Notes: a model not told the origin generated them from the letters alone. 64,000 nucleotides of DNA from an uncultured Chloroflexia bacterium (GCA_963778955.1 CAVZWI010000001.1:480697-544696), one strand, 5' to 3'. Positions 9,658 to 35,449 are shown, counted from the stretch's first letter. Made by a program: numbers and translations.

Positions 9658-11073
9658 ATGTCAGAACACATCCTCCGCAGTAGCCATATCGTTCCCGCTG
9701 ACTTGGAGCGCGTGTGGGACTTCTTCTCACGTGCCGAGAACCTCGGCCGCATCACGCCACGCTCGATGGGCTTCGAGATCCACACGCCAGAGCCCTCCGC
9801 TCTCCAGGGTTCGACGATCGACTACACCCTGCGGCCGCTCTTCGGCATCCCCACCAAGTGGCGCACGCTCATCGATGAGGTCGAGGCACCCCGCCGCTTC
9901 AGCGACGTCCAGGAGAAGGGGCCCTACAAGTCTTGGGTCCATGAGCATCGCTTCAGCACCGTCGAAGGCGGCGTGCGCATGGATGATCGAGTCACCTACG
10001 AGATGCCCTTCGGTCCCATCGGCGCGCTCGGGCATCGGCTGCTCGTGCGACGCCAACTGCAGCACGTGTTCGACTTCCGCTCCATCGCCATCGACGCCAT
10101 CTTCGAGCCTGCCGCCTACCGTATCGACGCCGTTCCCGGCACCATCGCCGTCGCCGGCGGTACCGGCTTCGTGGGCGGTGAGATCGCCCGCGAGCTGCGT
10201 CGTCGCGGCCGCCGCGTCGTGGTCTTGTCCTCGCGTGGCGAGCGCGCCCGCGGACAGTTGCCGGACGATATCGAGATCCGTAGCGCCGACGTGCGCGATC
10301 CTCAAAGCATCCGCGCCGCCATGGCGGGTGTCGACGAACTCGTCATCTCACTGGCCTTCCCCGGTCTACCGGTCGAGCAGCCCAGCAAGGGCTTCACGTT
10401 CATGGAGGTGGACGCAGGCGGTGCGGAACACCTCATCGACGCTGGAAAAGCGACCGGCGTGGGTCGTGTCGTCTACATCTCTGGCGCCGGCGCAGGCCAT
10501 GATGCCGAGCGACACTGGTTCCGCGCCAAGGCCGTGGCCGAGGATGCCGTGCGCGGCTCGGGCATGGCCTGGACGATCATCCGCCCCACCTGGGTCTTCG
10601 GCCCTGGTGACGTCTCATTGAACCGCTTCCTGGGCTTCGCCCGTGCGCTGCCCTTCGTGCCGATGACCAACTTCGGTAGCCAGCGCCTGGCACCCGTGTT
10701 CGTGCGCGACGTGGCTGCCCTGGCCGTCGATTCCCTGGTGTCCGATGCCGCCGCGGAGCAGACGTTCGAGATCGGTGGCCCAGAGGCGATGTCCATGCGC
10801 GAGGTGCTGCATCGAGCCATGGGCGTGGCTGGGCTGAGCAGGCCGTTGTTACCGGCACCCGCCGTCGTGGTCAAGGTCGCTGCCTGGCCCATGCGCTTCC
10901 TGCCCGACCCGCCGTTGAGCCCCGGCGCGGTCGACTTCATCAATCAGCCCGCGACAGTGGATGTCGGCCCATTGCTCGAACGCATGCCTCGAACACTCAC
11001 GTCCTTCGAGGAAGGCCTGTCCACCTACCTCGGCCCGGACCGCTCGACGGTCTCTATCGACGACGCCGGGTAG
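9658..11073 (+). CDS. SRPBCC domain fused to an NDUFA9-like NAD(P)-dependent epimerase/SDR
   Basis: N-terminal VWDFFSRAENLGRITP...QEKGPYKSWVHEHRF; C-terminal AVAGGTGFVGG...IRPTWVFGPGD. Confidence 0.85.
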   Translation: MSEHILRSSHIVPADLERVWDFFSRAENLGRITPRSMGFEIHTPEPSALQGSTIDYTLRPLFGIPTKWRTLIDEVEAPRRFSDVQEKGPYKSWVHEHRFSTVEGGVRMDDRVTYEMPFGPIGALGHRLLVRRQLQHVFDFRSIAIDAIFEPAAYRIDAVPGTIAVAGGTGFVGGEIARELRRRGRRVVVLSSRGERARGQLPDDIEIRSADVRDPQSIRAAMAGVDELVISLAFPGLPVEQPSKGFTFMEVDAGGAEHLIDAGKATGVGRVVYISGAGAGHDAERHWFRAKAVAEDAVRGSGMAWTIIRPTWVFGPGDVSLNRFLGFARALPFVPMTNFGSQRLAPVFVRDVAALAVDSLVSDAAAEQTFEIGGPEAMSMREVLHRAMGVAGLSRPLLPAPAVVVKVAAWPMRFLPDPPLSPGAVDFINQPATVDVGPLLERMPRTLTSFEEGLSTYLGPDRSTVSIDDAG

Positions 11074-11120
11074 GAGGACGTCCGGACCGTCCGCTGTTGC
11101 GAAGTGGTCGACGTCACGAC

Positions 11121-13364: not shown

Positions 13365-14719
13365 CCCTGCTCATCATCACTCCCGACTACGCCTCGCACG
13401 CGGTCCCGATGCTCACCATCGGTCGCGCCTGGCAGCGCCGGGGCCAGCGGGTAGTCGTCGCCACTGGGCCGATCATGGCACCGCTGGTACGCCATGCCGG
13501 CATGGAGCACACCGAGCTGATCATGTCGCGTGGCTCGAATGCTGGCGTCATCCGAACGGAGCAGGCGCGGGACACCGAAGCTCGCTCACTGGAAGCCTTC
13601 TTCACGGCCACGAGAGCGGGCATGGTCCCGACGCTGCGCTACCAGGCGGAACAACGGTCGACCGATCTGTTGTGGCGTCCCACGCAGGTCGCCCATCGCA
13701 CCCTGCGCATCCTAGACAGTCACGCGCCCGACACCATCCTCGTGGATCACCTCGCGTTCGCCGCCACCATCGGCCTGCGAGCCGCTGGCGCAGCCTACGG
13801 CGATGTGGTGCTGGGGCACCCCACGGCACTCCCGGTGGGCGATGAGCTCTACGGCGTGCCCTCTGCCTGGCCACCGGCGCTCCATCCCGACGTCATCGAG
13901 ATGGAGACGCTCCGACACACCGCTCGCGCCGTGACAGACGCATTCACCGCGGCCTACAACGAGGCCTTTCGGACGGTCGCTTCTGGTGCGCCAACGGTGC
14001 CAGACGCGTTCGGTGCCCACGGCGATGTGGTGCTCTACAACTATCCAGCCGCACTCCACGGACCGATCCGCAGCGCGCTCCTGCCTCGGCACGCCTTCCT
14101 TGGCAGTGCCGTACGCGATGAGGAGATCGACCCAGATACGCAGGAGTGGCTGGCCCGGTCCGACGGGCGCCCCCTGGTGGTGGTTTCGCTGGGAACGTTC
14201 CTCTCGGCACGCATCGACGTGCTGGCGCGCATCGCCGTCGCCCTGCAGCAGCTCGACGTTCGTGTCGCGATCGCCATCGGTGCGAACCAGCCGAGCGATC
14301 TGGGCCCGGTGCCGACCGACTGGCTGGTACGCACGACCCTGCCCCAGGTCGCGCTGCTCGAGCATGCCGACCTGCTGATCACACATGGCGGCAACAACAG
14401 CATCACCGAAGCGCTCCACCATGGCGTGCCCATGTTGGTCCTGCCCTTCTCGACCGACCAGTTCGACGGCGCTGCGGCGATCGAGCGCGGTCTGGTCGGT
14501 GTGGCTCTGGACCCCAACCGCTCCTCACGCCGCCTTATCGCGGGAGCTGCCCGCGGCCTGCTGCGGCGGCCACCGGCCGCTCCCGCGCGGATCGGCGAGC
14601 TCCTGCGGACACGGCCCGGACCGGAACTCGCGTACGACACCATGTCCGGCGTGCCGCGTGTGGCAGCGCCTGGGCAACCGATGGCACCACCGACCACCAC
14701 GGCCTCCCCTGCCGCCTAG
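13361..14719 (+). CDS. GT1 (MGT/UDP-glycosyltransferase) family protein
   Basis: DYASHAVPM catalytic His region, VSLGTF, LPQVALLEHADLLITHGGNNSITEALHHGVPMLVLPFSTDQ (UGT signature); GTGA overlap with the upstream gene. Confidence 0.88.
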   Translation: MTLLIITPDYASHAVPMLTIGRAWQRRGQRVVVATGPIMAPLVRHAGMEHTELIMSRGSNAGVIRTEQARDTEARSLEAFFTATRAGMVPTLRYQAEQRSTDLLWRPTQVAHRTLRILDSHAPDTILVDHLAFAATIGLRAAGAAYGDVVLGHPTALPVGDELYGVPSAWPPALHPDVIEMETLRHTARAVTDAFTAAYNEAFRTVASGAPTVPDAFGAHGDVVLYNYPAALHGPIRSALLPRHAFLGSAVRDEEIDPDTQEWLARSDGRPLVVVSLGTFLSARIDVLARIAVALQQLDVRVAIAIGANQPSDLGPVPTDWLVRTTLPQVALLEHADLLITHGGNNSITEALHHGVPMLVLPFSTDQFDGAAAIERGLVGVALDPNRSSRRLIAGAARGLLRRPPAAPARIGELLRTRPGPELAYDTMSGVPRVAAPGQPMAPPTTTASPAA

Positions 14720-14805: not shown

Positions 14806-15324
14806 TTACGGGAGCAGGACGTCGTTCACCACGTGGATGAAGCCATTGCTGGCACGAACGTTCGGCAGGATGATGCGAGCGCCATCGATCTCGACGCGCC
14901 ACCACTTGCCGGTGATCTCAGCCCGCTGGCCGTTGAGCATGGTCACCGAACTGCCGATCGCCTTGCGGGCGTCGCGGTAGGAGACCCTGCCGTCGATGAC
15001 GTGGTAGGTGAGGATGCTCAGGAGCGAACCCTGGTCTCCCTCGAAGGTCGAGCAGACGTTGCGCTTGTTGAGCCCGAGCTGGCGGAAGGCGCGGTCGGTC
15101 GGGGCGAACAGCGTGGTGTCCGGCTGTGACAGCGCGTCGACGACCGCGCTGTCGAAGTAGTCGCAGGTCGCCGCAGCCAGGAGCGTGTCGAAAGCGCCGG
15201 TGTACTTGTTGACCTGCACGGCACGCTCGACGATGTTCTTGCTAGGGCTGGCGCTGGTGACGGGGGCGAAAGCGGTGAGAGCAAGTGACGCCAGCAGTAC
15301 GCTGGCGATAAGCTTCTTGAACAC
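14806..15324 (-). CDS. secreted fasciclin (FAS1) domain protein
   Basis: Signal peptide; TLFAPTDRAF, ILTYHVI, NGFIHVVNDVLLP. Confidence 0.92.
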   Translation of the reverse strand: MFKKLIASVLLASLALTAFAPVTSASPSKNIVERAVQVNKYTGAFDTLLAAATCDYFDSAVVDALSQPDTTLFAPTDRAFRQLGLNKRNVCSTFEGDQGSLLSILTYHVIDGRVSYRDARKAIGSSVTMLNGQRAEITGKWWRVEIDGARIILPNVRASNGFIHVVNDVLLP

Positions 15325-15412
15325 TGGTGTTACCTCCTCATCGATGTTTGGCGGAGACGCGAATGGGGCCTGGCCGGGGGAAGCCAGACCCCATCCGCGC
15401 GGTCGGAGACTG

Positions 15413-16708
15413 CTAGTTGGCGGATGCCTCTTCGACGAGGATCACGTTGAAGGAGTCAGGGAACTGGCCGATAGCGATGGCGCTGTAGGCCTTCCCGTCC
15501 TCGAGCGTGAGCGGCGGGATGTCGAAGGCAGCGGCCTTCTTGCCAGCGGCGCGGATCTCGAGATCGACCTCACCAGCAGGCACGTTCTTGTAGCCCTTGG
15601 CATCGCCGAATTCGAGGTTCTTGAAGATGGCGCCCTTCTTGCCGGTGCCGTCGGGCGCGACGTCGACCTTGGGTGCGTTGGCGCTCAGGTGGACGACGCG
15701 GATCTTGGCACCCTCGGGCGACGGCTGGACCGCAGGGTCCTTGACGACGACGGCAGTGATGTCGGCGAGATCATTGGTCGCAGCGACCGTGGTCCGCGTG
15801 CCGCCATCGAAGGTCAGCTCAGCATCGATGACCACTGGCCCATCCGCCAGCGAAGCGCCGGTCGGGACGACCTGGATCTGGTAGGTGCCGGCCGGCACGT
15901 ACAGGTAGTCAGAGAGCGTGCCGAAGGGCACGTCGGTCAGGATGGCGCCACCGTTGGCATAGACATCCACATTCGGAGCGTCCGCGCTGAAGTGGCCGAC
16001 TCGCACACCTGCGAGTGCGGCGTCGACGGCCGGGACGACCGTGAACGTGCCATCGCCCAGGCCACCGACCGCGAAGACGGAGTAGCTCACACCGTCAGCG
16101 AGGGTGATCTCAGGGATGTCGAAGGCCACGTCGGTGGAGCCCGCGGGGCGGATCTCGAGGTCGTAGGCGCCGCCGGGAAGGGCCAGGTAGCCGGTGTTGT
16201 TGGGGTACTCGAGCTTCTCGATGAGCGCATCGGCGCCGTCAGGAGCGATGTCCACGGCGGGGGCGTCAGCGCTTAGGTGCACCACACGGACCTGGGCGGT
16301 ATCGGAGCTGGGTGCGGGGTCGTCCGCGATGACCTGCGGGACGATGCCGGAGGCCAGGCTGCCGGTAGCGGCAACGGTGGTCATGGTGCCGGCATCAAAG
16401 GTGAGCGTGGCGTCGATGACGACGGGGCCCTCTTCCAGAGTGGCGCCGTTGGGGACGACCTGGATCTGGTAGTCACCGCCGGGGACTTGAAGGTAGTCGG
16501 TGATCTGGCTGAACGCCAGGCCCTCGCCGATGAGCCCACCGTTGGCGTAGATGTCGACGGCGGGGGCGTCGCCGGCTCCGTGCAGCACACGGACCATCGC
16601 GTTCTCGTCTTGGGCGGCCGTGGCAAACGGGATGGCGGTGACGGCGGCCAAAGCGGCGACGGTACCGAGCATCCCGGCCTTGCGGCGAAGGGATAGCTGC
16701 TTGAGCAT
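15413..16708 (-). CDS. secreted DUF4397 protein with repeated beta-sandwich units
   Basis: Signal peptide; four VRVxHxSxDAPxVD-type units. Confidence 0.88.
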   Translation of the reverse strand: MLKQLSLRRKAGMLGTVAALAAVTAIPFATAAQDENAMVRVLHGAGDAPAVDIYANGGLIGEGLAFSQITDYLQVPGGDYQIQVVPNGATLEEGPVVIDATLTFDAGTMTTVAATGSLASGIVPQVIADDPAPSSDTAQVRVVHLSADAPAVDIAPDGADALIEKLEYPNNTGYLALPGGAYDLEIRPAGSTDVAFDIPEITLADGVSYSVFAVGGLGDGTFTVVPAVDAALAGVRVGHFSADAPNVDVYANGGAILTDVPFGTLSDYLYVPAGTYQIQVVPTGASLADGPVVIDAELTFDGGTRTTVAATNDLADITAVVVKDPAVQPSPEGAKIRVVHLSANAPKVDVAPDGTGKKGAIFKNLEFGDAKGYKNVPAGEVDLEIRAAGKKAAAFDIPPLTLEDGKAYSAIAIGQFPDSFNVILVEEASAN

Positions 16709-16758
16709 GAGGGTTTGTTCCTTTCGAACGGGTAGGTTCTCAGCGAATTCGGAGACTG

Positions 16759-16793
16759 GGCTGGTGATGTGGATCGAACCGCATCACCAGCCC
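16759..16793. terminator. intergenic stem-loop between the two DUF4397 genes
   Basis: GGGCTGGTGATG...CATCACCAGCCC inverted repeat. Confidence 0.55.
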
Positions 16794-16814
16794 GGTGGTG
16801 TCGTGGAGCCGCGG

Positions 16815-17561
16815 CTACGCGGCGGGGGACTCAGCGGCCATGTCGTCAGCCGCGGGGGACTCAGCGGCCATGTCGTCAGCCATCAGGCTGGCGTCGACGG
16901 CCGGGAGGACCGTGAAGCTACCGTCGGCCAGGGAGCCGATGGCGAAGACGGTGAAGCTGTTGCCGCCGTCCAGCATCAGGGGGTCGATATCGAAAGCCAC
17001 ATCGGTCGTGCCGGTGGGGCGGATCTCAAGGTCGTACTCACCTGCGGGGAGGTCAAGGTAGCCAGCTGCATCGGGGTAGGCCAGGTTCTCGACCACCACG
17101 TCGCCGCCGTCAAGGGCGACGTCAACGGCCGGGGCATCGGCGCTGAAGTGGACCACGCGAACCTGGGCGATGCCTTCCTGCGGCATGGGATCGTCGGCCA
17201 GAACCTGCGCCTCGATGTTGGCAAGGTTGTTGGTCGCAGCGACGGTCGTCATGGTGCCAGCCGCGAAGTCGAGGTCAACGGGACCGATGACTGCGCCATC
17301 GGCCGGATCGGCACCAGCTGCCACCACTTCGATGGTGTAGGTGCCACCGGGAACCTCGAGGTAGTCGGAGAGAACGCCGAAGGGCACATCGGTGAGGATG
17401 GCGCCACCGTTGGCGTAGACATCCACTGCGGGGGCATCTGGGCTGAAGTGCCCGACGCGGACCTTGGCGTTCTCATCCTGCGCGAACGCGCCGAGGGGGA
17501 GCGCCATGACCGCGGCGAGGGCGGCAGTGGCGGCGATGACCTGCATCTTGTTCTTTCGCAT
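16815..17561 (-). CDS. secreted DUF4397 protein, paralogue of the downstream gene
   Basis: MRKNKMQVIAATAALAA signal peptide preceded by GAAAGGA; VRVGHFSPDAPAVDV and VRVVHFSADAPAVDV; tail DDMAAESPAA twice (30-bp tandem repeat). Confidence 0.88.
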   Translation of the reverse strand: MRKNKMQVIAATAALAAVMALPLGAFAQDENAKVRVGHFSPDAPAVDVYANGGAILTDVPFGVLSDYLEVPGGTYTIEVVAAGADPADGAVIGPVDLDFAAGTMTTVAATNNLANIEAQVLADDPMPQEGIAQVRVVHFSADAPAVDVALDGGDVVVENLAYPDAAGYLDLPAGEYDLEIRPTGTTDVAFDIDPLMLDGGNSFTVFAIGSLADGSFTVLPAVDASLMADDMAAESPAADDMAAESPAA

Positions 17562-17723
17562 ATCTGTGTTCGTCCTTTCGAGAGTGTGTTCGGCTTTGAG
17601 GGGGCGAGCTTTCATCTCGCGGTCTGCGCTGGGATGGAGCGATCTACGCCCTGGCATGTGGGCCCGTCAGGGGCGCCACCGTCGCGTCATCTCGTTGACC
17701 TCCTTCATCTGCTTCCGTCTACG

Positions 17724-21346: not shown

Positions 21347-24300
21347 CTATGGCGTCGAGATAGCGTCTCCGAGGCCAAGAGCCCCGGCCACCGAGCCAAG
21401 GGTGGCATCGTCGCTGGTCAACAGGACCAGCACCGGATTCGAGGCCCCGGAGGAGACGTCTGCTTCGAGGACAGCGTGCGCACCCGGCAGGTCCGCGACC
21501 GCGGCATCAGCCGCGCTCACGAACTCACCGACATCGCCGGTCTTGTCCCACGTGGTCTGCCAGACGATGGCCCAGGAACCATCGGGCCCATCCAGGCTGA
21601 CGAGGCGATCTCCGCCCCAACCCGCAGCGGCCTTGTCGTCGCCGAGCCAAACCGCGGTCCGGAGCTCGCCCATGGTCTGCTGCCACTGTTCGCTCCAGCC
21701 CTGGCCCAGCGTGTTGGCGAACCCATCCATGGCCAAGGTCGTGGGCGCGTCATCGGGATATCGCTTGGGATGCAGGATCTGCTCGGTCGTCGCGGGCAGC
21801 TGACCCCAAGCGCCGTTCACGGCGTCCCAGCCTCCCTTGTTGCGAAGGAAGTCGACGAAGGACTGGCCCTCGACGAAGGGGAATGTGTACTCACGCTGCA
21901 GCAACTGCGGCATGGACTTCAGGATGCCATCGTTGCCGGGGACGACGACGCCATCCACCTTGGCCTGATTGCCTGAGTTCACGTTCTGAGCGGACCACTC
22001 GAGCATCGTGGCTGTGCCATCACCTTGATCGAGCGCGCTAGCGGCGAGCACGGCATCGCCGTTCGTGGGGTCATCGACCACACCTGCGTCAGCGCCAAAC
22101 GCTTGGTGTACGGCGGCCTGACCGAACTCGCGAGCGGCCTCGGCGCGTTGCGGCAGGTTGAGCTTGTCGATGCTCTCGAGGACGGACTGGCGATCACTAG
22201 ACGGGAGGTAGGTGATGGGCAGATCCTGCCCATAGAGCTTGTCGAGGAGGGAGGCGAGGTCATCGTCGTTGCCGAGCAGCCCCATGCGCTTGAGGGCGTC
22301 TTCCTCCTGCGTCAGCGTGGATGATGGGTAGAGGTTGTCGGCGCCCTGCCTGAGTAAGTCCGCTTGCTCGGCAGAGTTGGCGCCGTCGTATGGGGTATTG
22401 CCCAGATCCAACTCGCGGATCGCGGGCACCGTGAAAGCGACCGCATCCAACTGGCCGGATACCTGCCCGTTATCCAGGGTACCGCCCTGGCCATGAGGCT
22501 CGATCACCGGGCCTAGCGACACGACATAGTCGACGGCGCTGCCCTTGTCCAGCTCTGTCCCCGCCGGTGGGTCCTGGCTGATCACGACCCCGGCTGCAGC
22601 CGCATCGTTGGCCTCAGAGCGTTCACCGGGCTTCAGGCCCTCGGCCGCGATCGCGTCAAGTGCCGCGGCCTCGTCGGAGCCGACGACGTCGGGCACGGTG
22701 ACCTGCTTGGGACCCTTGCTGACGATGAGCGTGACCTCGGAGCCGACCTCGACGGTCTCGCCCGCGGCGGGTTCGGTCTTGACCGCGTCACCCGCGGGGA
22801 CCTTGCCGTTGGTGCGTTCGTCGAGGGTGACGCTGAGGCCCTGGTCGGTGAGTGCGGTCTGGGCGTCGGCGGCCGGCTGGCCGGCCACGTCGGGGATGGT
22901 GACCGCGGGTGGGCCGGAGCTGACGGTGAGGGCCACGGTGCTGTTCTGGTCGACCGTGCTGTCGGCGCCCGGATCCTGGGAGAGGACGGTGCCGGCGGGG
23001 GCCTCGGCCTCGGCCTGGCTGACCTCGCCCGGCTTGAGCCCGGCGTCCTTGATGGCGGTCTTGGCCGCGGCCTCGTCGGAGCCGACGACGTCGGGCACGG
23101 TGACCTGCTTGGGACCCTTGCTGACGATGAGCGTGACCTCGGAGCCGACCTCGACGGTCTCGCCCGCGGCGGGTTCGGTCTTGACCGCGTCACCCGCGGG
23201 GACCTTGCCGTTGGTGCGTTCGTCGAGGGTGACGCTGAGGCCCTGGTCGGTGAGTGCGGTCTGGGCGTCGGCGGCCGGCTGGCCGGCCACGTCGGGGATG
23301 GTGACCGCGGGTGGGCCGGAGCTGACGGTGAGGGCCACGGTGCTGTTCTGGTCGACCGTGCTGTCGGCGCCCGGATCCTGGGAGAGGACGGTGCCGGCGG
23401 GGGCCTCGGCCTCGGCCTGGCTGACCTCGCCCGGCTTGAGCCCGGCGTCCTTGATGGCGGTCTTGGCCGCGGCCTCGTCGGAGCCGACGACGTCGGGCAC
23501 GGTGACCTGCTTGGGACCCTTGCTGACGATGAGCGTGACCTCGGAGCCGACCTCGACGGTCTCGCCCGCGGCGGGTTCGGTCTTGACCGCGTCACCCGCG
23601 GGGACCTTGCCGTTGGTGCGTTCGTCGAGGGTGACGCTGAGGCCCTGGTCGGTGAGTGCGGTCTGGGCGTCGGCGGCCGGCTGGCCGGCCACGTCGGGGA
23701 TGGTGACCGCGGGTGGGCCGGAGCTGACGGTGAGGGCCACGGTGCTGTTCTGGTCGACCGTGCTGTCGGCGCCCGGATCCTGGGAGAGGACGGTGCCGGC
23801 GGGGGCCTCGGCCTCGGCCTGGCTGACCTCGCCCGGCTTGAGCCCGGCGTCCTTGATGGCGGTCTTGGCCGCGGCCTCGTCGGAGCCGACGACGTCGGGC
23901 ACGGTGACCTGCTTGGGACCCTTGCTGACGATGAGCGTGACCTCGGAGCCGACCTCGACGGTCTCGCCCGCGGCGGGTTCGGTCTTGACCGCGTCACCCG
24001 CGGGGACCTTGCCGTTGGTGCGTTCGTCGAGGGTGACGCTGAGGCCCTGGTCGGTGAGTGCGGTCTGGGCGTCGGCGGCCGGCTGGCCGGCCACGTCGGG
24101 GATGGTGACCGCGGGTGGGCCGGAGCTGACGGTGAGGGCCACGGTGCTGTTCTGGTCGACCGTGCTGTCGGCGCCCGGATCCTGGGAGAGGACGGTGCCG
24201 GCGGGGGCCTCGGCCTCGGCCTGGCTGACCTCGCCCGGCTTGAGCCCGGCGTCCTTGATGGCGGTCTTGGCCGCGGCCTCGTCGGAGCCGACGACGTCGG

Positions 24301-27300
24301 GCACGGTGACCTGCTTGGGACCCTTGCTGACGATGAGCGTGACCTCGGAGCCGACCTCGACGGTCTCGCCCGCGGCGGGTTCGGTCTTGACCGCGTCACC
24401 CGCGGGGACCTTGCCGTTGGTGCGTTCGTCGAGGGTGACGCTGAGGCCCTGGTCGGTGAGTGCGGTCTGGGCGTCGGCGGCCGGCTGGCCGGCCACGTCG
24501 GGGATGGTGACCGCGGGTGGGCCGGAGCTGACGGTGAGGGCCACGGTGCTGTTCTGGTCGACCGTGCTGTCGGCGCCCGGATCCTGGGAGAGGACGGTGC
24601 CGGCGGGGGCCTCGGCCTCGGCCTGGCTGACCTCGCCCGGCTTGAGCCCGGCGTCCTTGATGGCGGTCTTGGCCGCGGCCTCGTCGGAGCCGACGACGTC
24701 GGGCACGGTGACCTGCTTGGGACCCTTGCTGACGATGAGCGTGACCTCGGAGCCGACCTCGACGGTCTCGCCCGCGGCGGGTTCGGTCTTGACCGCGTCA
24801 CCCGCGGGGACCTTGCCGTTGGTGCGTTCGTCGAGGGTGACGCTGAGGCCCTGGTCGGTGAGTGCGGTCTGGGCGTCGGCGGCCGGCTGGCCGGCCACGT
24901 CGGGGATGGTGCGCTGGTTCGATCCTGTCGACAGGATGAGCGTCACCGGTGACTCGAGAGGTACCTCTGAACCTGCCGCTGGTTCGGTCTTGATGGCGTT
25001 GCCAGCAGCGATCTTCTCGTTTGACTGCTCAACGGTGTCACCCACGGTCAGACCTGCGGTCTCGATAGCCGTCACGGCGTCGTTTTGCGGCAAGTCACGG
25101 ACATCAGGGACATCGGCGTTTGGCGTGACGCCGAGGCTCGTGACATAGGCGACCGCGGAGCCCAGGGGCACCTCGGTGCCGGCGGCCGGATCGGAGCCGA
25201 TGACGTCGCCCGCGGCGATGCTGTCGTGGTATTCGCTGGTGACGTCACCGGCCACGAGGCCGACGTCGGTGAGCTTCTGCTCGGCATCGGTGGCGGGGCC
25301 CGAGAGGTCGGGCACGGCCACGGTGGGCACGGGCACGGCCACCTGCAGGGTGACGGTGGCGCCGACCGCGAGCTGGCTGTCCGCGGCGGGGTCCTGGCCG
25401 ACGATGGTGTCGGGCGCGGCGGCGTCGGTCTCGACGTCCTGCGTCTCGAGCAGCAGGCCGGCCGTATCGGCGGCGTCCTGCGCCGCGGCCAGGGTCAGGC
25501 CGCTGAAGTCGGGCACGGCCACGGTCTCGACGCCGAGGCTCGTGACATAGGCGACCGCGGAGCCCAGGGGCACCTCGGTGCCGGCGGCCGGATCGGAGCC
25601 GATGACGTCGCCCGCGGCGATGCTGTCGTGGTATTCGCTGGTGACGTCACCGGCCACGAGGCCGACGTCGGTGAGCTTCTGCTCGGCATCGGTGGCGGGG
25701 CCCGAGAGGTCGGGCACGGCCACGGTGGGCACGGGCACGGCCACCTGCAGGGTGACGGTGGCGCCGACCGCGAGCTGGCTGTCCGCGGCGGGGTCCTGGC
25801 CGACGATGGTGTCGGGCGCGGCGGCGTCGGTCTCGACGTCCTGCGTCTCGAGCAGCAGGCCGGCCGTATCGGCGGCGTCCTGCGCCGCGGCCAGGGTCAG
25901 GCCGCTGAAGTCGGGCACGGCCACGGTCTCGACGCCGAGGCTCGTGACATAGGCGACCGCGGAGCCCAGGGGCACCTCGGTGCCGGCGGCCGGATCGGAG
26001 CCGATGACGTCGCCCGCGGCGATGCTGTCGTGGTATTCGCTGGTGACGTCACCGGCCACGAGGCCGACGTCGGTGAGCTTCTGCTCGGCATCGGTGGCGG
26101 GGCCCGAGAGGTCGGGCACGGCCACGGTGGGCACGGGCACGGCCACCTGCAGGGTGACGGTGGCGCCGACCGCGAGCTGGCTGTCCGCGGCGGGGTCCTG
26201 GCCGACGATGGTGTCGGGCGCGGCGGCGTCGGTCTCGACGTCCTGCGTCTCGAGCAGCAGGCCGGCCGTATCGGCGGCGTCCTGCGCCGCGGCCAGGGTC
26301 AGGCCGCTGAAGTCGGGCACGGCCACGGTCTCGACGCCGAGGCTCGTGACATAGGCGACCGCGGAGCCCAGGGGCACCTCGGTGCCGGCGGCCGGATCGG
26401 AGCCGATGACGTCGCCCGCGGCGATGCTGTCGTGGTATTCGCTGGTGACGTCACCGGCCACGAGGCCGACGTCGGTGAGCTTCTGCTCGGCATCGGTGGC
26501 GGGGCCCGAGAGGTCGGGCACGGCCACGGTGGGCACGGGCACGGCCACCTGCAGGGTGACGGTGGCGCCGACCGCGAGCTGGCTGTCCGCGGCGGGGTCC
26601 TGGCCGACGATGGTGTCGGGCGCGGCGGCGTCGGTCTCGACGTCCTGCGTCTCGAGCAGCAGGCCGGCCGTATCGGCGGCGTCCTGCGCCGCGGCCAGGG
26701 TCAGGCCGCTGAAGTCGGGCACGGCCACGGTCTCGACGCCGAGGCTCGTGACATAGGCGACCGCGGAGCCCAGGGGCACCTCGGTGCCGGCGGCCGGATC
26801 GGAGCCGATGACGTCGCCCGCGGCGATGCTGTCGTGGTATTCGCTGGTGACGTCACCGGCCACGAGGCCGACGTCGGTGAGCTTCTGCTCGGCATCGGTG
26901 GCGGGGCCCGAGAGGTCGGGCACGGCCACGGTGGGCACGGGCACGGCCACCTGCAGGGTGACGGTGGCGCCGACCGCGAGCTGGCTGTCCGCGGCGGGGT
27001 CCTGGCCGACGATGGTGTCGGGCGCGGCGGCGTCGGTCTCGACGTCCTGCGTCTCGAGCAGCAGGCCGGCCGTATCGGCGGCGTCCTGCGCCGCGGCCAG
27101 GGTCAGGCCGCTGAAGTCGGGCACGGCCACGGTCTCGACGCCGAGGCTCGTGACATAGGCGACCGCGGAGCCCAGGGGCACCTCGGTGCCGGCGGCCGGA
27201 TCGGAGCCGATGACGTCGCCCGCGGCGATGCTGTCGTGGTATTCGCTGGTGACGTCACCGGCCACGAGGCCGACGTCGGTGAGCTTCTGCTCGGCATCGG

Positions 27301-30300
27301 TGGCGGGGCCCGAGAGGTCGGGCACGGCCACGGTGGGCACGGGCACGGCCACCTGCAGGGTGACGGTGGCGCCGACCGCGAGCTGGCTGTCCGCGGCGGG
27401 GTCCTGGCCGACGATGGTGTCGGGCGCGGCGGCGTCGGTCTCGACGTCCTGCGTCTCGAGCAGCAGGCCGGCCGTATCGGCGGCGTCCTGCGCCGCGGCC
27501 AGGGTCAGGCCGCTGAAGTCGGGCACGGCCACGGTCTCGACGCCGAGGCTCGTGACATAGGCGACCGCGGAGCCCAGGGGCACCTCGGTGCCGGCGGCCG
27601 GATCGGAGCCGATGACGTCGCCCGCGGCGATGCTGTCGTGGTATTCGCTGGTGACGTCACCGGCCACGAGGCCGACGTCGGTGAGCTTCTGCTCGGCATC
27701 GGTGGCGGGGCCCGAGAGGTCGGGCACGGCCACGGTGGGCACGGGCACGGCCACCTGCAGGGTGACGGTGGCGCCGACCGCGAGCTGGCTGTCCGCGGCG
27801 GGGTCCTGGCCGACGATGGTGTCGGGCGCGGCGGCGTCGGTCTCGACGTCCTGCGTCTCGAGCAGCAGGCCGGCCGTATCGGCGGCGTCCTGCGCCGCGG
27901 CCAGGGTCAGGCCGCTGAAGTCGGGCACGGCCACGGTCTCGACGCCGAGGCTCGTGACATAGGCGACCGCGGAGCCCAGGGGCACCTCGGTGCCGGCGGC
28001 CGGATCGGAGCCGATGACGTCGCCCGCGGCGATGCTGTCGTGGTATTCGCTGGTGACGTCACCGGCCACGAGGCCGACGTCGGTGAGCTTCTGCTCGGCA
28101 TCGGTGGCGGGGCCCGAGAGGTCGGGCACGGCCACGGTGGGCACGGGCACGGCCACCTGCAGGGTGACGGTGGCGCCGACCGCGAGCTGGCTGTCCGCGG
28201 CGGGGTCCTGGCCGACGATGGTGTCGGGCGCGGCGGCGTCGGTCTCGACGTCCTGCGTCTCGAGCAGCAGGCCGGCCGTATCGGCGGCGTCCTGCGCCGC
28301 GGCCAGGGTCAGGCCGCTGAAGTCGGGCACGGCCACGGTCTCGACGCCGAGGCTCGTGACATAGGCGACCGCGGAGCCCAGGGGCACCTCGGTGCCGGCG
28401 GCCGGATCGGAGCCGATGACGTCGCCCGCGGCGATGCTGTCGTGGTATTCGCTGGTGACGTCACCGGCCACGAGGCCGACGTCGGTGAGCTTCTGCTCGG
28501 CATCGGTGGCGGGGCCCGAGAGGTCGGGCACGGCCACGGTGGGCACGGGCACGGCCACCTGCAGGGTGACGGTGGCGCCGACCGCGAGCTGGCTGTCCGC
28601 GGCGGGGTCCTGGCCGACGATGGTGTCGGGCGCGGCGGCGTCGGTCTCGACGTCCTGCGTCTCGAGCAGCAGGCCGGCCGTATCGGCGGCGTCCTGCGCC
28701 GCGGCCAGGGTCAGGCCGCTGAAGTCGGGCACGGCCACGGTCTCGACGCCGAGGCTCGTGACATAGGCGACCGCGGAGCCCAGGGGCACCTCGGTGCCGG
28801 CGGCCGGATCGGAGCCGATGACGTCGCCCGCGGCGATGCTGTCGTGGTATTCGCTGGTGACGTCACCGGCCACGAGGCCGACGTCGGTGAGCTTCTGCTC
28901 GGCATCGGTGGCGGGGCCCGAGAGGTCGGGCACGGCCACGGTGGGCACGGGCACGGCCACCTGCAGGGTGACGGTGGCGCCGACCGCGAGCTGGCTGTCC
29001 GCGGCGGGGTCCTGGCCGACGATGGTGTCGGGCGCGGCGGCGTCGGTCTCGACGTCCTGCGTCTCGAGCAGCAGGCCGGCCGTATCGGCGGCGTCCTGCG
29101 CCGCGGCCAGGGTCAGGCCGCTGAAGTCGGGCACGGCCACGGTCTCGACGCCGAGGCTCGTGACATAGGCGACCGCGGAGCCCAGGGGCACCTCGGTGCC
29201 GGCGGCCGGATCGGAGCCGATGACGTCGCCCGCGGCGATGCTGTCGTGGTATTCGCTGGTGACGTCACCGGCCACGAGGCCGACGTCGGTGAGCTTCTGC
29301 TCGGCATCGGTGGCGGGGCCCGAGAGGTCGGGCACGGCCACGGTGGGCACGGGCACGGCCACCTGCAGGGTGACGGTGGCGCCGACCGCGAGCTGGCTGT
29401 CCGCGGCGGGGTCCTGGCCGACGATGGTGTCGGGCGCGGCGGCGTCGGTCTCGACGTCCTGCGTCTCGAGCAGCAGGCCGGCCGTATCGGCGGCGTCCTG
29501 CGCCGCGGCCAGGGTCAGGCCGCTGAAGTCGGGCACGGCCACGGTCTCGACGCCGAGGCTCGTGACATAGGCGACCGCGGAGCCCAGGGGCACCTCGGTG
29601 CCGGCGGCCGGATCGGAGCCGATGACGTCGCCCGCGGCGATGCTGTCGTGGTATTCGCTGGTGACGTCACCGGCCACGAGGCCGACGTCGGTGAGCTTCT
29701 GCTCGGCATCGGTGGCGGGGCCCGAGAGGTCGGGCACGGCCACGGTGGGCACGGGCACGGCCACCTGCAGGGTGACGGTGGCGCCGACCGCGAGCTGGCT
29801 GTCCGCGGCGGGGTCCTGGCCGACGATGGTGTCGGGCGCGGCGGCGTCGGTCTCGACGTCCTGCGTCTCGAGCAGCAGGCCGGCCGTATCGGCGGCGTCC
29901 TGCGCCGCGGCCAGGGTCAGGCCGCTGAAGTCGGGCACGGCCACGGTCTCGACGCCGAGGCTCGTGACATAGGCGACCGCGGAGCCCAGGGGCACCTCGG
30001 TGCCGGCGGCCGGATCGGAGCCGATGACGTCGCCCGCGGCGATGCTGTCGTGGTATTCGCTGGTGACGTCACCGGCCACGAGGCCGACGTCGGTGAGCTT
30101 CTGCTCGGCATCGGTGGCGGGGCCCGAGAGGTCGGGCACGGCCACGGTGGGCACGGGCACGGCCACCTGCAGGGTGACGGTGGCGCCGACCGCGAGCTGG
30201 CTGTCCGCGGCGGGGTCCTGGCCGACGATGGTGTCGGGCGCGGCGGCGTCGGTCTCGACGTCCTGCGTCTCGAGCAGCAGGCCGGCCGTATCGGCGGCGT

Positions 30301-31956
30301 CCTGCGCCGCGGCCAGGGTCAGGCCGCTGAAGTCGGGCACGGCCACGGTCTCGACGCCGAGGCTCGTGACATAGGCGACCGCGGAGCCCAGGGGCACCTC
30401 GGTGCCGGCGGCCGGATCGGAGCTGAGGACATGGCCTGCGACGATGCTGTCATCGCTGGCTTCGGTGACATCACCCGGCACGAGGCCAGCGTCAGCGAGA
30501 GCACGCAGGGCGTCGGCCTCGGGCAGATCGACGAGATCGGGCACGGCCACCGGCTCGGGACCGAGCGAGAGGACATAGTCCACCGCGGAACCGGGATCGA
30601 CCTCGGCATCGGCCGCGGGATCGGAGCTGAGGACATGGCCTGCGACGATGCTGTCATCGCTGGCTTCGGTGACATCACCCGGCACGAGGCCAGCGTCAGC
30701 GAGAGCACGCAGGGCGTCGGCCTCGGGCAGATCGACGAGATCGGGCACGGCCACCGGCTCGGGACCGAGCGAGAGGACATAGTCCACCGCGGAACCGGGA
30801 TCGACCTCGGCATCGGCCGCGGGATCGGAGCTGAGGACATGGCCTGCGACGATGCTGTCATCGCTGGCTTCGGTGACATCACCCGGCACGAGGCCAGCGT
30901 CAGCGAGAGCACGCAGGGCGTCGGCCTCGGGCAGATCGACGAGATCGGGCACGGCCACCGGCTCGGGACCACGGCTCACGATGAGCGCGATCCTGCTGCC
31001 AGGCGCCAGCTCGGCATCCGCCTCTGGGTCGGTGCTCATGACGACACCGGCCATGACCGTGTCACTGGGCTCTTCGGTCGATCGATACCACCCTGAAGCC
31101 AGCGTCCCTGATGGCCTGGACGGCGGCGTCCTGCGAGAGTCCCACCAGGTCGGGCACTGGGTCAGTCGGAACAGCGGCCGCTACGGAGAGCTCGATCGTG
31201 GAACCAACGTCCACCGACTCGCCTGGTGGAGGATCCTGACCGATAACGGTGTCAGGCTCGACTTCGTCGGTCTCTACCTGAGTGACACGGATGACGAGTC
31301 CGGAGTCAGCGGCCGTCGTCTCCGCGTCCGCCAGCGTCCGGCCCTGGAAGTTGGGCGTGTCGACCGTAGCGATCGCAGATGGTTCGGCGCTGGGTACCTC
31401 GGTCATGACCGGTGATGGCGACGGGCTCGCATTCACATCGGTCGGTGAATCGAACGGTCGGAACAGGATGAGCACGATGGCCAATGCCACGATGAAGGCG
31501 CCCACGAGGATGCCGCCGACCAGCAGGACAGGCGTGCCCTCCTCGGGTGGCTCACCGCCATCAGCGGAAGGCGGGATGGGGGACTCGAGGGTCATCTCGG
31601 GCTTGGCGGCCAGTGCGGCCAGTGCGGCCTCAGTGGCCTCCGGGTCAGGCGCGACGGGCGTGGTCGTCCAGGCAGCTCCAGCAGCAGCGGCGTCAGCGGC
31701 CTCGGCTTCTGTCTCAGCCACGGTCCCCGCGACCGCCTCTTCCTCGGCCGCAGGCGCCTCCGCGTCCACCTCTGCATCCGCGCTCGCGTCGGGCCCAGCT
31801 TCCTCGCTGGGCTCAGCAGCCACGGCCTCGGCGCTCGACGAGGCCGCGGCTTCTGACTGCTCCGCGGCCGACTCGGCATCTTCAGGTTGGGGTGACGTCG
31901 AGGAGGCGTCTGTGGACGGTGTGGGGTCGCCGAGGATCCGGCTTCTGGTCAGTCAT
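21347..31956 (-). CDS. giant (~3,500 aa) single-TM protein with ~44 PASTA domains and a C-terminal degenerate metallopeptidase-like domain; frameshifts near 31935 and 31075
   Basis: ORFs 21347..31054 and 31062..31823 join (…AGFRVVSID|EEPSDTVMAGVVMSTDP…); start MTDQKPD at 31956; TM VLLVGGILVGAFIVALAIVLILF; repeated VPDxxGxxxxxAxxxLxxxGL...QDPxAG...VxLxVSxG. Confidence 0.88.
22662..24911. repeat. coding tandem array A: ~5.6 copies of a 402-bp unit (2 PASTA domains)
   Basis: Unit recurs at 22662, 23064, 23466, 23868, 24270 and 24672; no differences seen by eye. Confidence 0.95.
25127..30423. repeat. coding tandem array B: ~13.2 copies of a different 402-bp unit (2 PASTA domains)
   Basis: Identical 124-aa shadow ORFs every 402 bp from 25176 to 30000 (13 copies). 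Confidence 0.96.
30414..30970. repeat. coding tandem array C: ~2.7 copies of a 204-bp unit (1 PASTA domain)
   Basis: GGATCGGAGCTGAGGACATGG at 30414, 30618 and 30822. Confidence 0.93.
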
Positions 31957-32096
31957 GGCAGGCGGACCTTACGGGAGTGGGCCTCGTCATGCGAGTACCC
32001 CGACCGGTCCTTCTGGGCTGATACCGACGCAAGTGTCCGTTTCTTCATCGTCCGCCGCTCCTCGCTTCACTCGCCGGCGGCTCGAGATGTCAGTCG

Positions 32097-33437
32097 TCAG
32101 ATGCCGAGCGCCACCTCAACGGCACCCAATGTCTCCTCACTGTCGGCCGCCAGTACGAGTACTGGAGAGGATAGACCTCCCGCGATATCGGCATCCGTGA
32201 CGGAGTGCGCACCGGGCAAGTCCTTCATGGCATCCCGCGCGGCTTGATGGAACTCCTTCTGGTCGGCTCCGGTGTCCCAGTCGGTCTGCCAGACCACGGC
32301 CCAGGCACCATCCGGACCATCCAGGCTTAGTAATCGATCGCCGCCCCAACCAGCCGCCGCGGAGGCATTCGGCAGTTGTCCGGGCAGGCCCGGGAACAAC
32401 GACTGGCGCTTCTTGCCGTCTGCCACCCACACGCCGATCTGCATCTCGCCCAGGGTCTGCTGATAGCTGGTCGACCAGTCGGCACCGAGGGTCGCGCCGA
32501 CGTCCGGCAGGACGATCTCGACAGGTACCTCATCGGGATACAACTCGGGGTGCAGGATCTGCTCGGTCGAGACCGGCTGTGCATCCCACGCCTGATCGAC
32601 CGCTGCCCAGTCGCCTCGACCACGCACTGCCATCACATACGCGTAACCGTCGAGGTAGGGGAACTCAAGCTGTCGCTGCAGGATCATCGGCATGCGTTCC
32701 AGCGCCTTCTGGTCCTGCTTCGTAATCAATTCTGCCGAGACGCGCAGCAGGTCGGTCAGCTTGAGCTCACGAGTCGCCCAGTCATACATCACCGCGGTGG
32801 CATCGCCCTCGATGAGGGCCTGTTGGGCGAGGATGGCGTCCGACTGATCGAGGTCATCGATGCGGCGACCCTCCAAGTCCCACTGGGCATCCTGAAGTGC
32901 ATGATCATATTCATGTGCGACGACGATGGACTCCAGCGCCCCGATCTTGTCGATGGGACCGATGAGCGAGAACGTCTTGGTCAGCGGGTCGTAGTAGGCC
33001 AGCACCTGGCTGTCGTAGATCGAGAGGATGAGCGCTTCAAGGTCGTCATCCGGCCCCAGGAGACCAAGGCGCGTGAAGGCCGCGTCCTCAGCCTGGACGT
33101 AGGCATCGCTGTACTCAGCGCGGAACAGGGCGCGCAACTCATCGAGGAAGGCCTGGCTGTCGATGACGCGATAGGCGACGCCCTCGGCCGGCGGCAGCCC
33201 ACGCACGGGATGGACGCTACCGATGATCTGACCGACCCTCTTCGCCATCTTGGCGTCGAAGCCTTCCGGCAGAGGCGTCGCCACGGCCGCGAGGCTGGCC
33301 TGGGGCGAGGGCGAAGTGTCCTGGGCGCTGGCGAGCCCGACTCCGACCGATGCCAGCAGCACGACTGACAAGAGTGCCGCCGGAAGGAAGAGGCGATGGC
33401 CAGAGCATAGGTGCAGAGCGTGATCGAGTGGTGCCAT
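32097..33437 (-). CDS. secreted putative zinc metallopeptidase (HExxH...E), paralogous to the C-terminus of the giant PASTA protein
   Basis: Signal-like LLSVVLLASVGVGLASA; LAYYDP, AHEYDHALQD, ALIEGDAT, FPYLDG, PVSTEQILHP, AAGWGGDR, WQTDWD. Confidence 0.82.
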   Translation of the reverse strand: MAPLDHALHLCSGHRLFLPAALLSVVLLASVGVGLASAQDTSPSPQASLAAVATPLPEGFDAKMAKRVGQIIGSVHPVRGLPPAEGVAYRVIDSQAFLDELRALFRAEYSDAYVQAEDAAFTRLGLLGPDDDLEALILSIYDSQVLAYYDPLTKTFSLIGPIDKIGALESIVVAHEYDHALQDAQWDLEGRRIDDLDQSDAILAQQALIEGDATAVMYDWATRELKLTDLLRVSAELITKQDQKALERMPMILQRQLEFPYLDGYAYVMAVRGRGDWAAVDQAWDAQPVSTEQILHPELYPDEVPVEIVLPDVGATLGADWSTSYQQTLGEMQIGVWVADGKKRQSLFPGLPGQLPNASAAAGWGGDRLLSLDGPDGAWAVVWQTDWDTGADQKEFHQAARDAMKDLPGAHSVTDADIAGGLSSPVLVLAADSEETLGAVEVALGI

Positions 33438-33570
33438 GGGTCTGCATTCTGCCAGCCGGACGCGACTACCACCAGCGGAGGCCATCTCCGAGTCCCCGGA
33501 ATACCGATGAGATGTGCGTTTCTTCATCATTCGAGGTCTGGTGCCTTCACGCTCGACAGCTAGAGTTCTC

Positions 33571-33663
33571 GGCACGGAACCGTGAAGCCAACCTTCTCAG
33601 TTCCCTCTCCCTCCCTCTGGAACGAGGGGCGCTGATTGGGCAGGCGCCCCTCGTTCCTTCTTT
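33571..33663 (+). ncRNA. candidate small RNA or attenuator with a C/U-rich linker and an intrinsic terminator
   Basis: TAGAGT -10-like at 33561; 5' hairpin GGCACGG-AA-CCGTGaaGCC; linker TTCCCTCTCCCTCCCTCT; 14-bp stem 33619-33657 followed by TTCTTT. Confidence 0.45.
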
Positions 33664-34434: not shown

Positions 34435-35449
34435 CTATCCTTCGGGGCTAACGTCCTGGCCTGTGCCGGCGATCCTGGAGCGCGCACGAGCCTGTTCCAG
34501 GCGGACCTCCAGGATCATGTCGGGATCGAAGCGGCGGATGCGCAGCCAAGCGGCTGCCTCGGTGACACGGCGCTCGGCCGGATGGAAGGTGCTCGAGCCG
34601 ATGTGGTCGGCCACCTCGACCAGGGCAGCCGCGGGGAGCAAGCCGACGAGCTCGGAATCGAGCACGCTCACGTGTTCCTCGGCAGCGAGTCGCTGGGCTT
34701 CTTCCCAAACACGCCACAGTGGCGTGCGCTGATGATCGAGGATGTTCATCGACAGCTGCGTGCAGCCCTGGGAGATCGAGGCCGATCCCCAGCGCTTGGA
34801 CGGCGGCAAGGCCGCCGTCGCGTTCACGGATGCGAGCCGCCATTCGGCGAGCGACGGCGACATCGGTCGTGGATAACTGGAGGTTGAAGGCGATGAGGAA
34901 CGGCCGCACGCCGACGGCGGTCGCACCTGCGGTCGGGTGTGGAGATGAAGGCCCGAAGTCAGGTTTGCCCTCAGGGCGGGCCATGGCCGCGGCCAGGCCT
35001 TCGAACCCAGGCCGACGGATCGCTGTCAGAACCCGCCGTTCCGGCCACTGGGCGGCCGCGGCGTAGAGGTACACGGGCAACTCGAACCGCTCGGCGAGAC
35101 GCTCCGCGAACTCACGCGCGCCGTCCACACATTGGGCCACGGTGGTGTCACCAAGGGGCACGAAGGGAATGACATCCACAGCCCCGATGCGGGGGTGCAG
35201 GCCGCGATGTTGGCGCATGTCGATGCGTTGGATGGCAGTCTCGACCGCGGATCCCATGGTGACCATGACGCGTCCCGGAAACCCTGCCAGCGTGAACACG
35301 CTGCGATCGTGGTCAGGGTCACTGGTCCGATCGAGCAGCCAGCTGCCGGCCTGCCGCTCGATGGCGGCGCCGATGGCATCGAGCGTCTGCAGGTTCGTGC
35401 CCTCGCTGAAGTTGGGTACGCACTCCACGAGACTTTCGAAGCGGTCCAT
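34435..35449 (-). CDS. ftcD: glutamate formimidoyltransferase, frameshift near 34780
   Basis: LVECVPNFSEG, DPDHDRSVFT, HPRIGAVDVIPFVPL, LPVYLY, HPTAGATAVG, LIAFN; QLSMNILD...SELVGLLP in the second frame. Confidence 0.92.

Follow-up and report, generated by a model that had tools for sequence, protein, structure and literature searches.

A kinase-less giant PASTA protein with a gluzincin-like head that lacks the zinc ligands, from an uncultured Chloroflexota genus

What is a protein with 44 PASTA domains and no kinase for? The question is raised by a gene on the minus strand, at positions 21347-31956, of a 64,000-nt stretch of DNA from an uncultured Chloroflexia bacterium (GCA_963778955.1 CAVZWI010000001.1:480697-544696); the whole stretch is here called the window, and all positions are counted within it. 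Work on PASTA domains has dealt almost entirely with one to four sensor units attached to the kinases and penicillin-binding proteins (PBPs) of pathogens. The giant gene described here is real and is conserved in its genus. We hold, with somewhat more belief than doubt, that its product is a periscope-like surface protein anchored at its N-terminus, in which the PASTA array would serve as a length-setting polyanionic spacer and a dead gluzincin head as a binding module.

The PASTA array and its conservation

The main open reading frame (ORF; 21347-31054, minus strand, stop-to-stop limit 31180) encodes 3235 amino acids with 42 PASTA stretches (Pfam PF03793; E = 0, 1562 bits), and a stop-to-stop fragment upstream of it (31062-31952, minus strand, 296 amino acids) contains two further PASTA domains. 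The units of the giant pass the PF03793 gathering score of 23.2 bits and so belong to the PASTA family. Above this cut-off the whole genome yields 52 matches, 45 of them inside the giant locus; the 45 matches represent 44 domains, because one domain is split into two partial matches at a frame break. Counted from the side of the transmembrane (TM) segment, the order is two unique units followed by 3, 26, 1 and 12 units, which reads I, J/A, BBB, (CD)x13, E, (FG)x5, F, H in the unit map. An earlier note on this DNA had estimated about 44 PASTA units with the same breakdown, and both the total above the Pfam cut-off and the partition prove exact.

The probable true start codon is an ATG at 31954-31956. 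In the window the segment after it is read in another frame, and the start codon of the orthologs lies at the corresponding place. The ATG is followed by an acidic, low-complexity N-terminal tail (31530-31953, from the translation) that is presumed to be cytoplasmic and holds the first frame break, near 31934, and then by a single TM segment of 23 hydrophobic residues (31461-31529; best Kyte-Doolittle window mean 3.1), which is conserved in orthologs. PASTA unit 1 is unique (31161-31358; fragment residues 198-258; E 3e-18 with a hidden Markov model (HMM) of our own), as is unit 2 (30953-31157), which the second frame break splits into two partial PF03793 matches (C1:511670-511777 and 511773-511853). 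Tandem Repeats Finder recognises three arrays in the remainder. Units 3-5 (30341-30952; BBB) form a 204-bp array of 2.8 copies (30406-30970), and units 6-31 (25115-30340; (CD)x13) correspond to a 402-bp double unit in 13.2 copies (25127-30451). Unit 32 (24908-25114; E) is again unique, and units 33-44 (22496-24907; (FG)x5, F, H) consist of a second 402-bp double unit in 5.6 copies (22662-24911) and a diverged last unit. The C-terminal head (21350-22495) comprises 382 amino acids and is a DUF8230/Hvo_1808 homolog with two lobes, the N-lobe gluzincin-like and the C-lobe of alpha/beta type; the stop codon occupies 21347-21349. The acidic N-terminus, the single TM segment and a terminal domain of roughly 390 residues had all been recognised in the earlier note.

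The 13 full copies of the first 402-bp unit show no DNA differences among themselves, and the five full copies of the second are likewise identical (Tandem Repeats Finder matches 100%); the two halves of each 402-bp unit share only about 53-54% identity. The stalk of 2853 amino acids contains 10.5% Asp, 5.4% Glu, 2.0% Lys and 0.5% Arg and carries a net charge of -383, in keeping with its earlier description as very acidic. The G + C content at third codon positions (GC3) of the giant ORF is 0.91. As the earlier note had also stated, kinase and PBP domains are lacking: a profile scan of the whole genome gave no Pkinase or transpeptidase match within the giant locus. Against NF033483 (PknB/Stk1 PASTA kinase), which calls for at least 450 bits, the giant scores 58.4 bits, with the TM-PASTA part only (model positions 285-462), and it is not a PBP2x-type class B PBP, as none of the four PF00905 matches in the genome lies in the locus.

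Matches on the main ORF to DUF1024, PDH_N, TrmI-like and other Pfam families, of which no stretch passes singly, were taken as noise summed over the repeats. Long plus-strand ORFs over the repeats (25085-31096 and 22545-25148) were rejected as genes, being shadow frames of the GC-rich repeat. The plus strand of 22545-31096 contains open frames of 867 and 2003 amino acids and thirteen of 124 amino acids, all without family support, and no gene annotation is warranted there. A scan for promoters and terminators 3' of the giant gene found nothing.

An AlphaFold model of a four-unit segment (CDCD), built on an alignment (124 rows) in which four-unit segments of the window were combined with those of the orthologs, reaches a mean predicted local distance difference test (pLDDT) of 95.3 and a predicted template modelling score (pTM) of 0.64. 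The PASTA unit in this model is predicted to be of alpha plus beta-strand structure and matches solved PASTA arrays. Foldseek aligns the model with the ectodomain of Staphylococcus aureus PrkC (3py9; E 2.2e-15) at a root-mean-square deviation (rmsd) of 2.6 A over 207 columns, that is, over three consecutive units; the rmsd is 4.4 A with 3m9g and about 16 A with PBP2x entries. The stalk is thus predicted to pack linearly, in the kinase-type manner of PrkC and PknB and unlike the folded pair of PBP2x, as the two arrangements are described in PMC7654742.

Eleven loci were fetched from species-representative genomes, and ten of them are Chloroflexota orthologs with heads 56-87% identical. Their PASTA units were counted with an HMM trained on the units of the window. 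Loci L001, L008 and L010 encode 35, 39 and 38 units, respectively, each in one ORF, and L002 encodes 48 units in a frame of 3812 amino acids that is complete, with the TM segment in the locus. Frame breaks occur in L004 (33-34 units) and in large numbers in L006 and L007 (about 37 units each), and three loci are cut by a contig end, namely L005 (at least 30 units), L003 (2 units) and L009 (0 units). A match to the head at E ≤ 1e-20 is present in 45 of the 49 genomes of the genus. In 27 of them (the window's own genome, G000, included) the identity is no less than 53%, and 11 of these 27 carry the head in open frames of 1938-3812 amino acids. The distance from the head to a paralog of it that lies upstream (described below) is 6169-10405 bp in 23 genomes, which corresponds to 26.8-47.8 units with a median of 34.9; this spacing estimate agrees with direct counts within one unit for G000, G240, G244, G225 and G234. 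The species have some unit types in common but differ in which they amplified: a double unit occurs in both the window and L001, L008 has a triple unit, and L010 has a single unit amplified 22 times.

Beyond the genus, a sample of the class (probably Limnocylindria; 201 genomes) contains 116 genomes that match the head, all except G000 at 29-38% identity and mostly in frames of about 420-560 amino acids, the stand-alone form. The unpublished genomes G159, G087, G123 and G096 are among the 116, and nothing rests on these four; G283, also unpublished, is one row of the phylum sample. That sample (121 genomes, E ≤ 1e-12) gives 13 PASTA matches for G000 and 0-3 for the others, in frames of 147-875 amino acids, and at a first look the PASTA candidates number 68 in G000 and 3-24 elsewhere. 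A 99%-identical protein, P0154, is a fragment without both ends, so it gives no copy number at the level of the strain.

The earlier note had treated 21347-31956 as one gene frame. In the window it in fact falls into three frames: that of the ATG at 31956, that of the acidic tail and TM segment (31062-31952) and that of the main ORF (21347-31180). They are separated by two overlooked +1 breaks near 31934 and near 31079-31087, at each of which the loss of one base would restore the frame. The interval 30975-32400 was compared with Logan contigs of four soil or sediment runs from two studies. The contigs of runs X2 and X4, which come from the two studies, have one base fewer at 31934, which places the ATG in frame with the tail. 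The second site is covered by one X3 contig only (31032-31716, depth 3), in which two bases are out and one is in at 31079-31087, a net change of -1, and which reads through PASTA unit 2. The contigs end near 31023-31096, at the start of the repeats, and absent cover over the repeats carries no meaning. The orthologs L001, L008 and L010 share the giant's opening residues (M-T-D-Q/E-K-P-D) at the corresponding start codon, and the orthologs are continuous through PASTA unit 2. Several long-read metagenome-assembled genomes (MAGs) of the genus show a head split into two matches. Elsewhere in the window, a formiminotransferase gene (34435-35449, minus strand) is split as well, with FTCD_N (profile 1-176) in frame 34448-35449 and the FTCD subdomain (profile 50-106) in frame 34435-34926; this too is probably an assembly indel. 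Because independent contigs lack both breaks, the orthologs are continuous, FTCD is also frameshifted and MAGs of the genus show split matches, the two breaks of the giant gene are most likely consensus indels of the long-read assembly.

A selected head without zinc ligands

The head scores 86 bits against NCBIfam NF038145 (Hvo_1808 family surface protein; cut-off 200) and its paralog 144.6 bits, so both are homologous to the members of this model without being equivalogs. The Pfam copy searched contains no family that matches the head or the paralog. PF26686 (DUF8230) appears, as PF26686.1 and beside PF03793, in the precomputed labels of the orthologs P0152, P0153, P0155, P0156 and P0158, and in the ESM Atlas the head falls among PF26686-bearing clusters (score 0.96). 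A search of 1.84 billion representatives returned 5958 relatives of the head at E ≤ 1e-3 and 2986 at E ≤ 1e-10; MAGs of uncultured Chloroflexia bacterium and of Candidatus Limnocylindrales are among their sources. The DUF8230/Hvo_1808 family has thousands of members and, to our knowledge, no known role; Hvo_1808 itself has reportedly been used as a lipoprotein model substrate.

The best 150 relatives were aligned with the paralog and the giant, and 123 of the resulting 152 rows contain HExxH with a Glu about 31 residues downstream. In the giant's head the motif reads RExxQ..Q: both zinc-binding His residues are replaced and the third ligand is replaced too, so the gluzincin active site (HExxH with the downstream Glu as third zinc ligand) is absent. 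The nearest relatives, P0002, P0004 and P0010, have RExxR..Q, and RExx[Q/R] is present in all ten orthologous loci, with E, Q or A at the third position.

The AlphaFold model of the head (106-row alignment) has a pLDDT of 96.1 and a pTM of 0.93. In a VIA-align comparison with a library of 48,161 chains, head residues 1-249 show the thermolysin/M1-like catalytic-domain fold: the matches are 3cmn, a putative hydrolase of Chloroflexus (Z 12.2), DUF885 (Z 9.8), M1 aminopeptidases (Z 8.5-9.1, with F3 aminopeptidase at 9.1 and LTA4 hydrolase at 8.9), M32 (Z 8.5) and thermolysin (Z 7.3). Residues 250-378 match 1vr8 (Z 8.0), the PknH ectodomain (Z 6.8) and TiME (Z 6.3). Foldseek found no match of the head in the PDB at E ≤ 0.001 (best E 1.3e-2) and none in a viral library, and a sequence search of the PDB with the head profile gave nothing significant (best IrrE, E 0.11).

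The ratio of nonsynonymous to synonymous substitution rates (dN/dS, NG86 method) of the head is 0.14-0.30 in comparisons with seven orthologs, so the head is under purifying selection. Going by its sequence, it is thus a non-zinc relative of the putative gluzincins that has been conserved under selection, and a non-catalytic head under purifying selection fits a binding head. Eleven of the best 150 head relatives carry 1-11 PASTA units, most of them beginning inside a unit and hence truncated. P0005, P0006, P0007 and P0017 combine 1-4 PASTA units with a retained HExxH..E, and such PASTA-stalked forms beside the dead-head clade may still be active peptidases.

Spacer, wall binder or display scaffold

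In the arrangement that we favour, one gene would yield a single-pass envelope protein of about 3,530 residues (N-terminus inside) in a genus of soil and sediment Chloroflexota. A presumably cytoplasmic acidic tail would be followed by one TM helix and by 44 PASTA domains set head to tail as in PASTA kinases, forming a strongly polyanionic, roughly linear rod. The rise per PASTA unit in the solved PrkC and PknB ectodomains is 3.5-4 nm; if each of the 44 units adds as much, the rod would be about 150 nm long. The two-lobed head at its far end would derive from the secreted, gluzincin-type (HExxH..E) DUF8230/Hvo_1808 family, with both zinc His residues lost, and would act as a ligand-binding module for capture or adhesion, spaced from the cell by the array. 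This would be a periscope or fibrillar-adhesin design on an unexpected stalk domain. Recombination between the DNA-identical repeats would renew and tune the length of the stalk, in line with about 27-48 units in related species and with the amplification of different units. DNA-identical repeats that vary in number and in the unit amplified are a signature of spacer or periscope stalks. The earlier note had already suggested that PASTA is used here as a periscope spacer; the linear, PrkC-like model of four units, the varying identical repeats and the non-catalytic but selected head now support that suggestion, and its other parts, exposure at the surface, a length of over 100 nm and binding, we still infer.

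Several points weigh against this arrangement. PASTA domains are known as binders of muropeptides and lipid II, so that the array may be bound to the wall rather than projecting from it. The Glu of HExxH is kept in the head (RExxQ), and its sequence would permit an activity that is metal-independent or differently liganded; the fold matches of the C-lobe are middling (Z 6-8). The repeat numbers come only from assemblies, and polishing of the consensus may account for part of the DNA identity between copies. Only the one contig of depth 3 speaks against the second frame break, and a real frameshift in the strain is possible, chiefly at that site.

The genome in which the gene resides (3.25 Mb in 4 contigs) encodes peptidoglycan synthesis, with 4 transpeptidase (PF00905/PBP) matches and 5 Mur-ligase matches, two of the latter beside a PBP on contig 2. 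Its sole Pkinase match (C1:457373-458128) falls outside the giant locus, in the only Hanks-type kinase (G000:C1:456335-458161; L012:1336-3162, minus strand), which lies about 22 kb before the window and has, with 608 amino acids, one Pkinase domain and 3 PASTA units, the canonical PknB/PrkC architecture. With peptidoglycan synthesis and a canonical PASTA kinase encoded elsewhere, the giant is extra. The genome also contains small PASTA-only ORFs without a kinase or PBP domain, of 268 amino acids with 2 units (L013:1401-2207, minus strand), 128 amino acids with 1 unit (L013:2645-3031, plus strand) and 383 amino acids with 1 unit (L014:1619-2770, minus strand).

In the N-terminal tail of the giant lies a motif rich in Thr and about 30 residues long (W-T-T-T-P-V-A-P-D-P ...; 31590-31676, minus strand, W codon 31668-31670). 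Its sequence changes little or not at all among L001, L002, L008 and L010; the genome contains it once, and the tail around it is otherwise variable. Such a motif could be a docking or phosphorylation site, and the 608-amino-acid PASTA kinase is a candidate partner for it.

These elements agree with an alternative in which the protein is a wall-associated, multivalent binder of peptidoglycan or lipid II. Its 44 units would then lie in or along the sacculus, bind muropeptides with high avidity and keep the head, and perhaps the active-type peptidase encoded next to it, where the wall is being made, or would sense the state of the wall, and the W-T-T-T-P motif would be the docking or phosphorylation site for the PASTA kinase. 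PASTA domains of kinases do bind peptidoglycan fragments, according to PMC6213207 and PMC7654742; the genome has the PBPs, Mur ligases and the one PASTA kinase that such a role calls to mind, and the tail motif is conserved across species. The composition of the stalk, with its 0.5% Arg and its large negative net charge, nevertheless speaks against wall binding, and 44 units in line would far exceed the thickness of any wall. In StkP, moreover, three of the four PASTA units, the proximal ones, are described as a ruler rather than as binders (PMC7654742). Finally, the species have amplified different units and arrived at a similar total length, which suggests selection on length and not on a particular binding unit. 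We regard wall binding as unlikely.

A second alternative concerns the paralog. This gene (32097-33575, minus strand) encodes a stand-alone DUF8230/Hvo_1808 member of 492 amino acids with an N-terminal hydrophobic leader, and it keeps HExxH and the downstream Glu. It lies upstream of the giant on the same strand, 140 bp from the giant's ATG, and is 38% identical to the giant's head over the whole domain (BLASTP, E 1e-84). The paralog keeps this position in 23 genomes of the genus and, among the 10 fetched loci, in the 6 whose sequence extends sufficiently upstream (L001, L004, L006, L007, L008 and L010). Every locus that reaches far enough keeps the same order of a gene with a metallo-beta-lactamase fold, the paralog, the giant, a convergent arginyl-tRNA synthetase gene, a MerR/B12 regulator and two DUF4397 genes. 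The dead head might therefore pair with the active-type paralog, so that the stalk becomes a display scaffold with a working peptidase at its tip for distant peptide foraging. The constant adjacency, the intact motif and the leader would suit such a pairing, but the stand-alone form is present in 116 of the 201 class genomes, all of which except the window's own lack the giant, so the paralog needs no giant. The predicted complex of head and paralog scored 0.00 in two runs in which the controls did not fold, a result that counts neither way. All in all, a display scaffold appears improbable.

Although the two frame breaks fall within the gene's first 900 bases, the perfectly identical repeats are such as polishing or assembly can yield and genome completeness is 84%, arrays inflated by mis-assembly or a pseudogene decaying through two frameshifts can be set aside as very improbable, given the 11 of 27 genus genomes with long open frames over the head, the four fetched orthologs that are single open frames with 35-48 units, the purifying selection on the head, the independent contigs that lack both breaks and the high GC3.

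Two further gene clusters of the window deserve mention. A likely secreted cluster at 14806-17657 (minus strand) consists of a fasciclin-domain protein (172 amino acids) and two DUF4397 proteins (431 and 280 amino acids) and is conserved beside the giant gene in the orthologous loci. A sugar-modification cluster at 9658-14719 (plus strand) encodes an NAD-dependent epimerase/dehydratase, a group 1 glycosyltransferase of 755 amino acids and a UDP-glycosyltransferase, and may be envelope-related.

Comparison with known systems

The PASTA Ser/Thr kinases (PknB, PrkC, Stk1 and StkP) share with the giant, in its presumed topology, a cytoplasmic N-terminus, one TM helix and extracellular PASTA domains in line. 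Three or four units are described for such kinases in PMC6213207. The giant lacks the kinase domain and has 44 units; it is also extremely acidic, its repeats are identical at the DNA level, and it carries a large head at the distal end. A literature search on giant or kinase-less multi-PASTA proteins, PASTA in Chloroflexota, PASTA as an adhesin stalk and DUF8230 found nothing relevant.

A word-indexed search with the whole giant among proteins of 1779-5662 amino acids returned 69 proteins, 11 of which have at least 30 units by our own HMM; five of these 11 are orthologs labelled PF03793 and PF26686. Two others, P0163 (3633 amino acids, Planctomycetota) and P0164 (3655 amino acids, Sedimentisphaerales), both annotated as PASTA domain-containing proteins, have 40 PASTA units each by the same HMM, are kinase-less and similarly acidic, and begin inside a unit, being truncated at the N-terminus. 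Kinase-less PASTA giants of at least 40 units are thus known also from Planctomycetota MAG sequences, and the kind is not unique to this genome. Unlike the giant, P0163 and P0164 come from other phyla and end in C-terminal parts that are unrelated to its head (best BLASTP E 0.031) and have a dockerin-like end; they are not orthologs. Taken together, P0163, P0164, P0168 and P0172 are acidic multi-PASTA giants of 30-40 units from Planctomycetota-type MAGs, three with a dockerin-like end, and with repeated G-G-W motifs; by their sequences, PASTA seems to have been put to use there as a stalk in parallel. The others of the 69 combine 5-24 PASTA units with FGE-sulfatase, RHS/YD, PKD, beta-helix or EF-hand parts. 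Such giants in other phyla, like the identity of the head, the adjacent active-type paralog and the conservation in the genus, had escaped the earlier note.

A wider proposal can be offered, tentatively and with rather more reserve than the spacer reading itself. The giant may represent an unrecognised class of long-range PASTA stalks: a polyanionic rod, some 150 nm long, in which selection on length would keep the number of units at 27-48 even as independent amplifications replace one unit by another, with a dead gluzincin head for capture, Thr-rich cytoplasmic wiring, and a separate origin in Planctomycetota with other heads. PASTA would then be a general rod-building block and not only a peptidoglycan sensor. 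If so, a conserved family of 27-48 units with no enzyme attached would make the PASTA fold a mechanical spacer as well, and would support at an extreme scale the idea of a ruler in StkP. Periscope proteins and fibrillar adhesins would gain a new type of stalk and a new type of head, the dead DUF8230 gluzincin, and DUF8230/Hvo_1808 a first functional handle. Long-read MAGs reveal genes of this kind and short-read assemblies truncate them; most head relatives in the databases begin inside a PASTA unit.

With the DUF8230/Hvo_1808 family the giant's head shares homology over its whole length and a gluzincin-like fold. The giant's clade differs from that family in lacking both His residues of HExxH and in its fusion to PASTA, most members being stand-alone proteins of about 450 amino acids.

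Periscope proteins and fibrillar adhesins have near-identical tandem repeats, rods of globular domains, a repeat number that varies among relatives and a functional tip distal to the anchor (PMC8201768 and PMC9210967). PASTA is not mentioned as a stalk domain in the main text of either paper or in one supplement of PMC8201768; other supplements may list Pfam families. The giant has the long, highly identical tandem DNA repeats of globular domains by which periscope proteins are recognised, at 402 bp x 13 and x 5, and its unit number varies between species (27-48 units), whereas the periscope criterion refers to variation between strains. Like Sgo_0707 and SasG, it has a repeat array that is predicted to form a rod, a number of units that varies between relatives and a head distal to the anchor, and it would likewise project from the surface. 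Unlike them, it is anchored by an N-terminal TM segment instead of a C-terminal sortase signal, bears a dead metallopeptidase homolog as its head and belongs to an uncultured Chloroflexota host.

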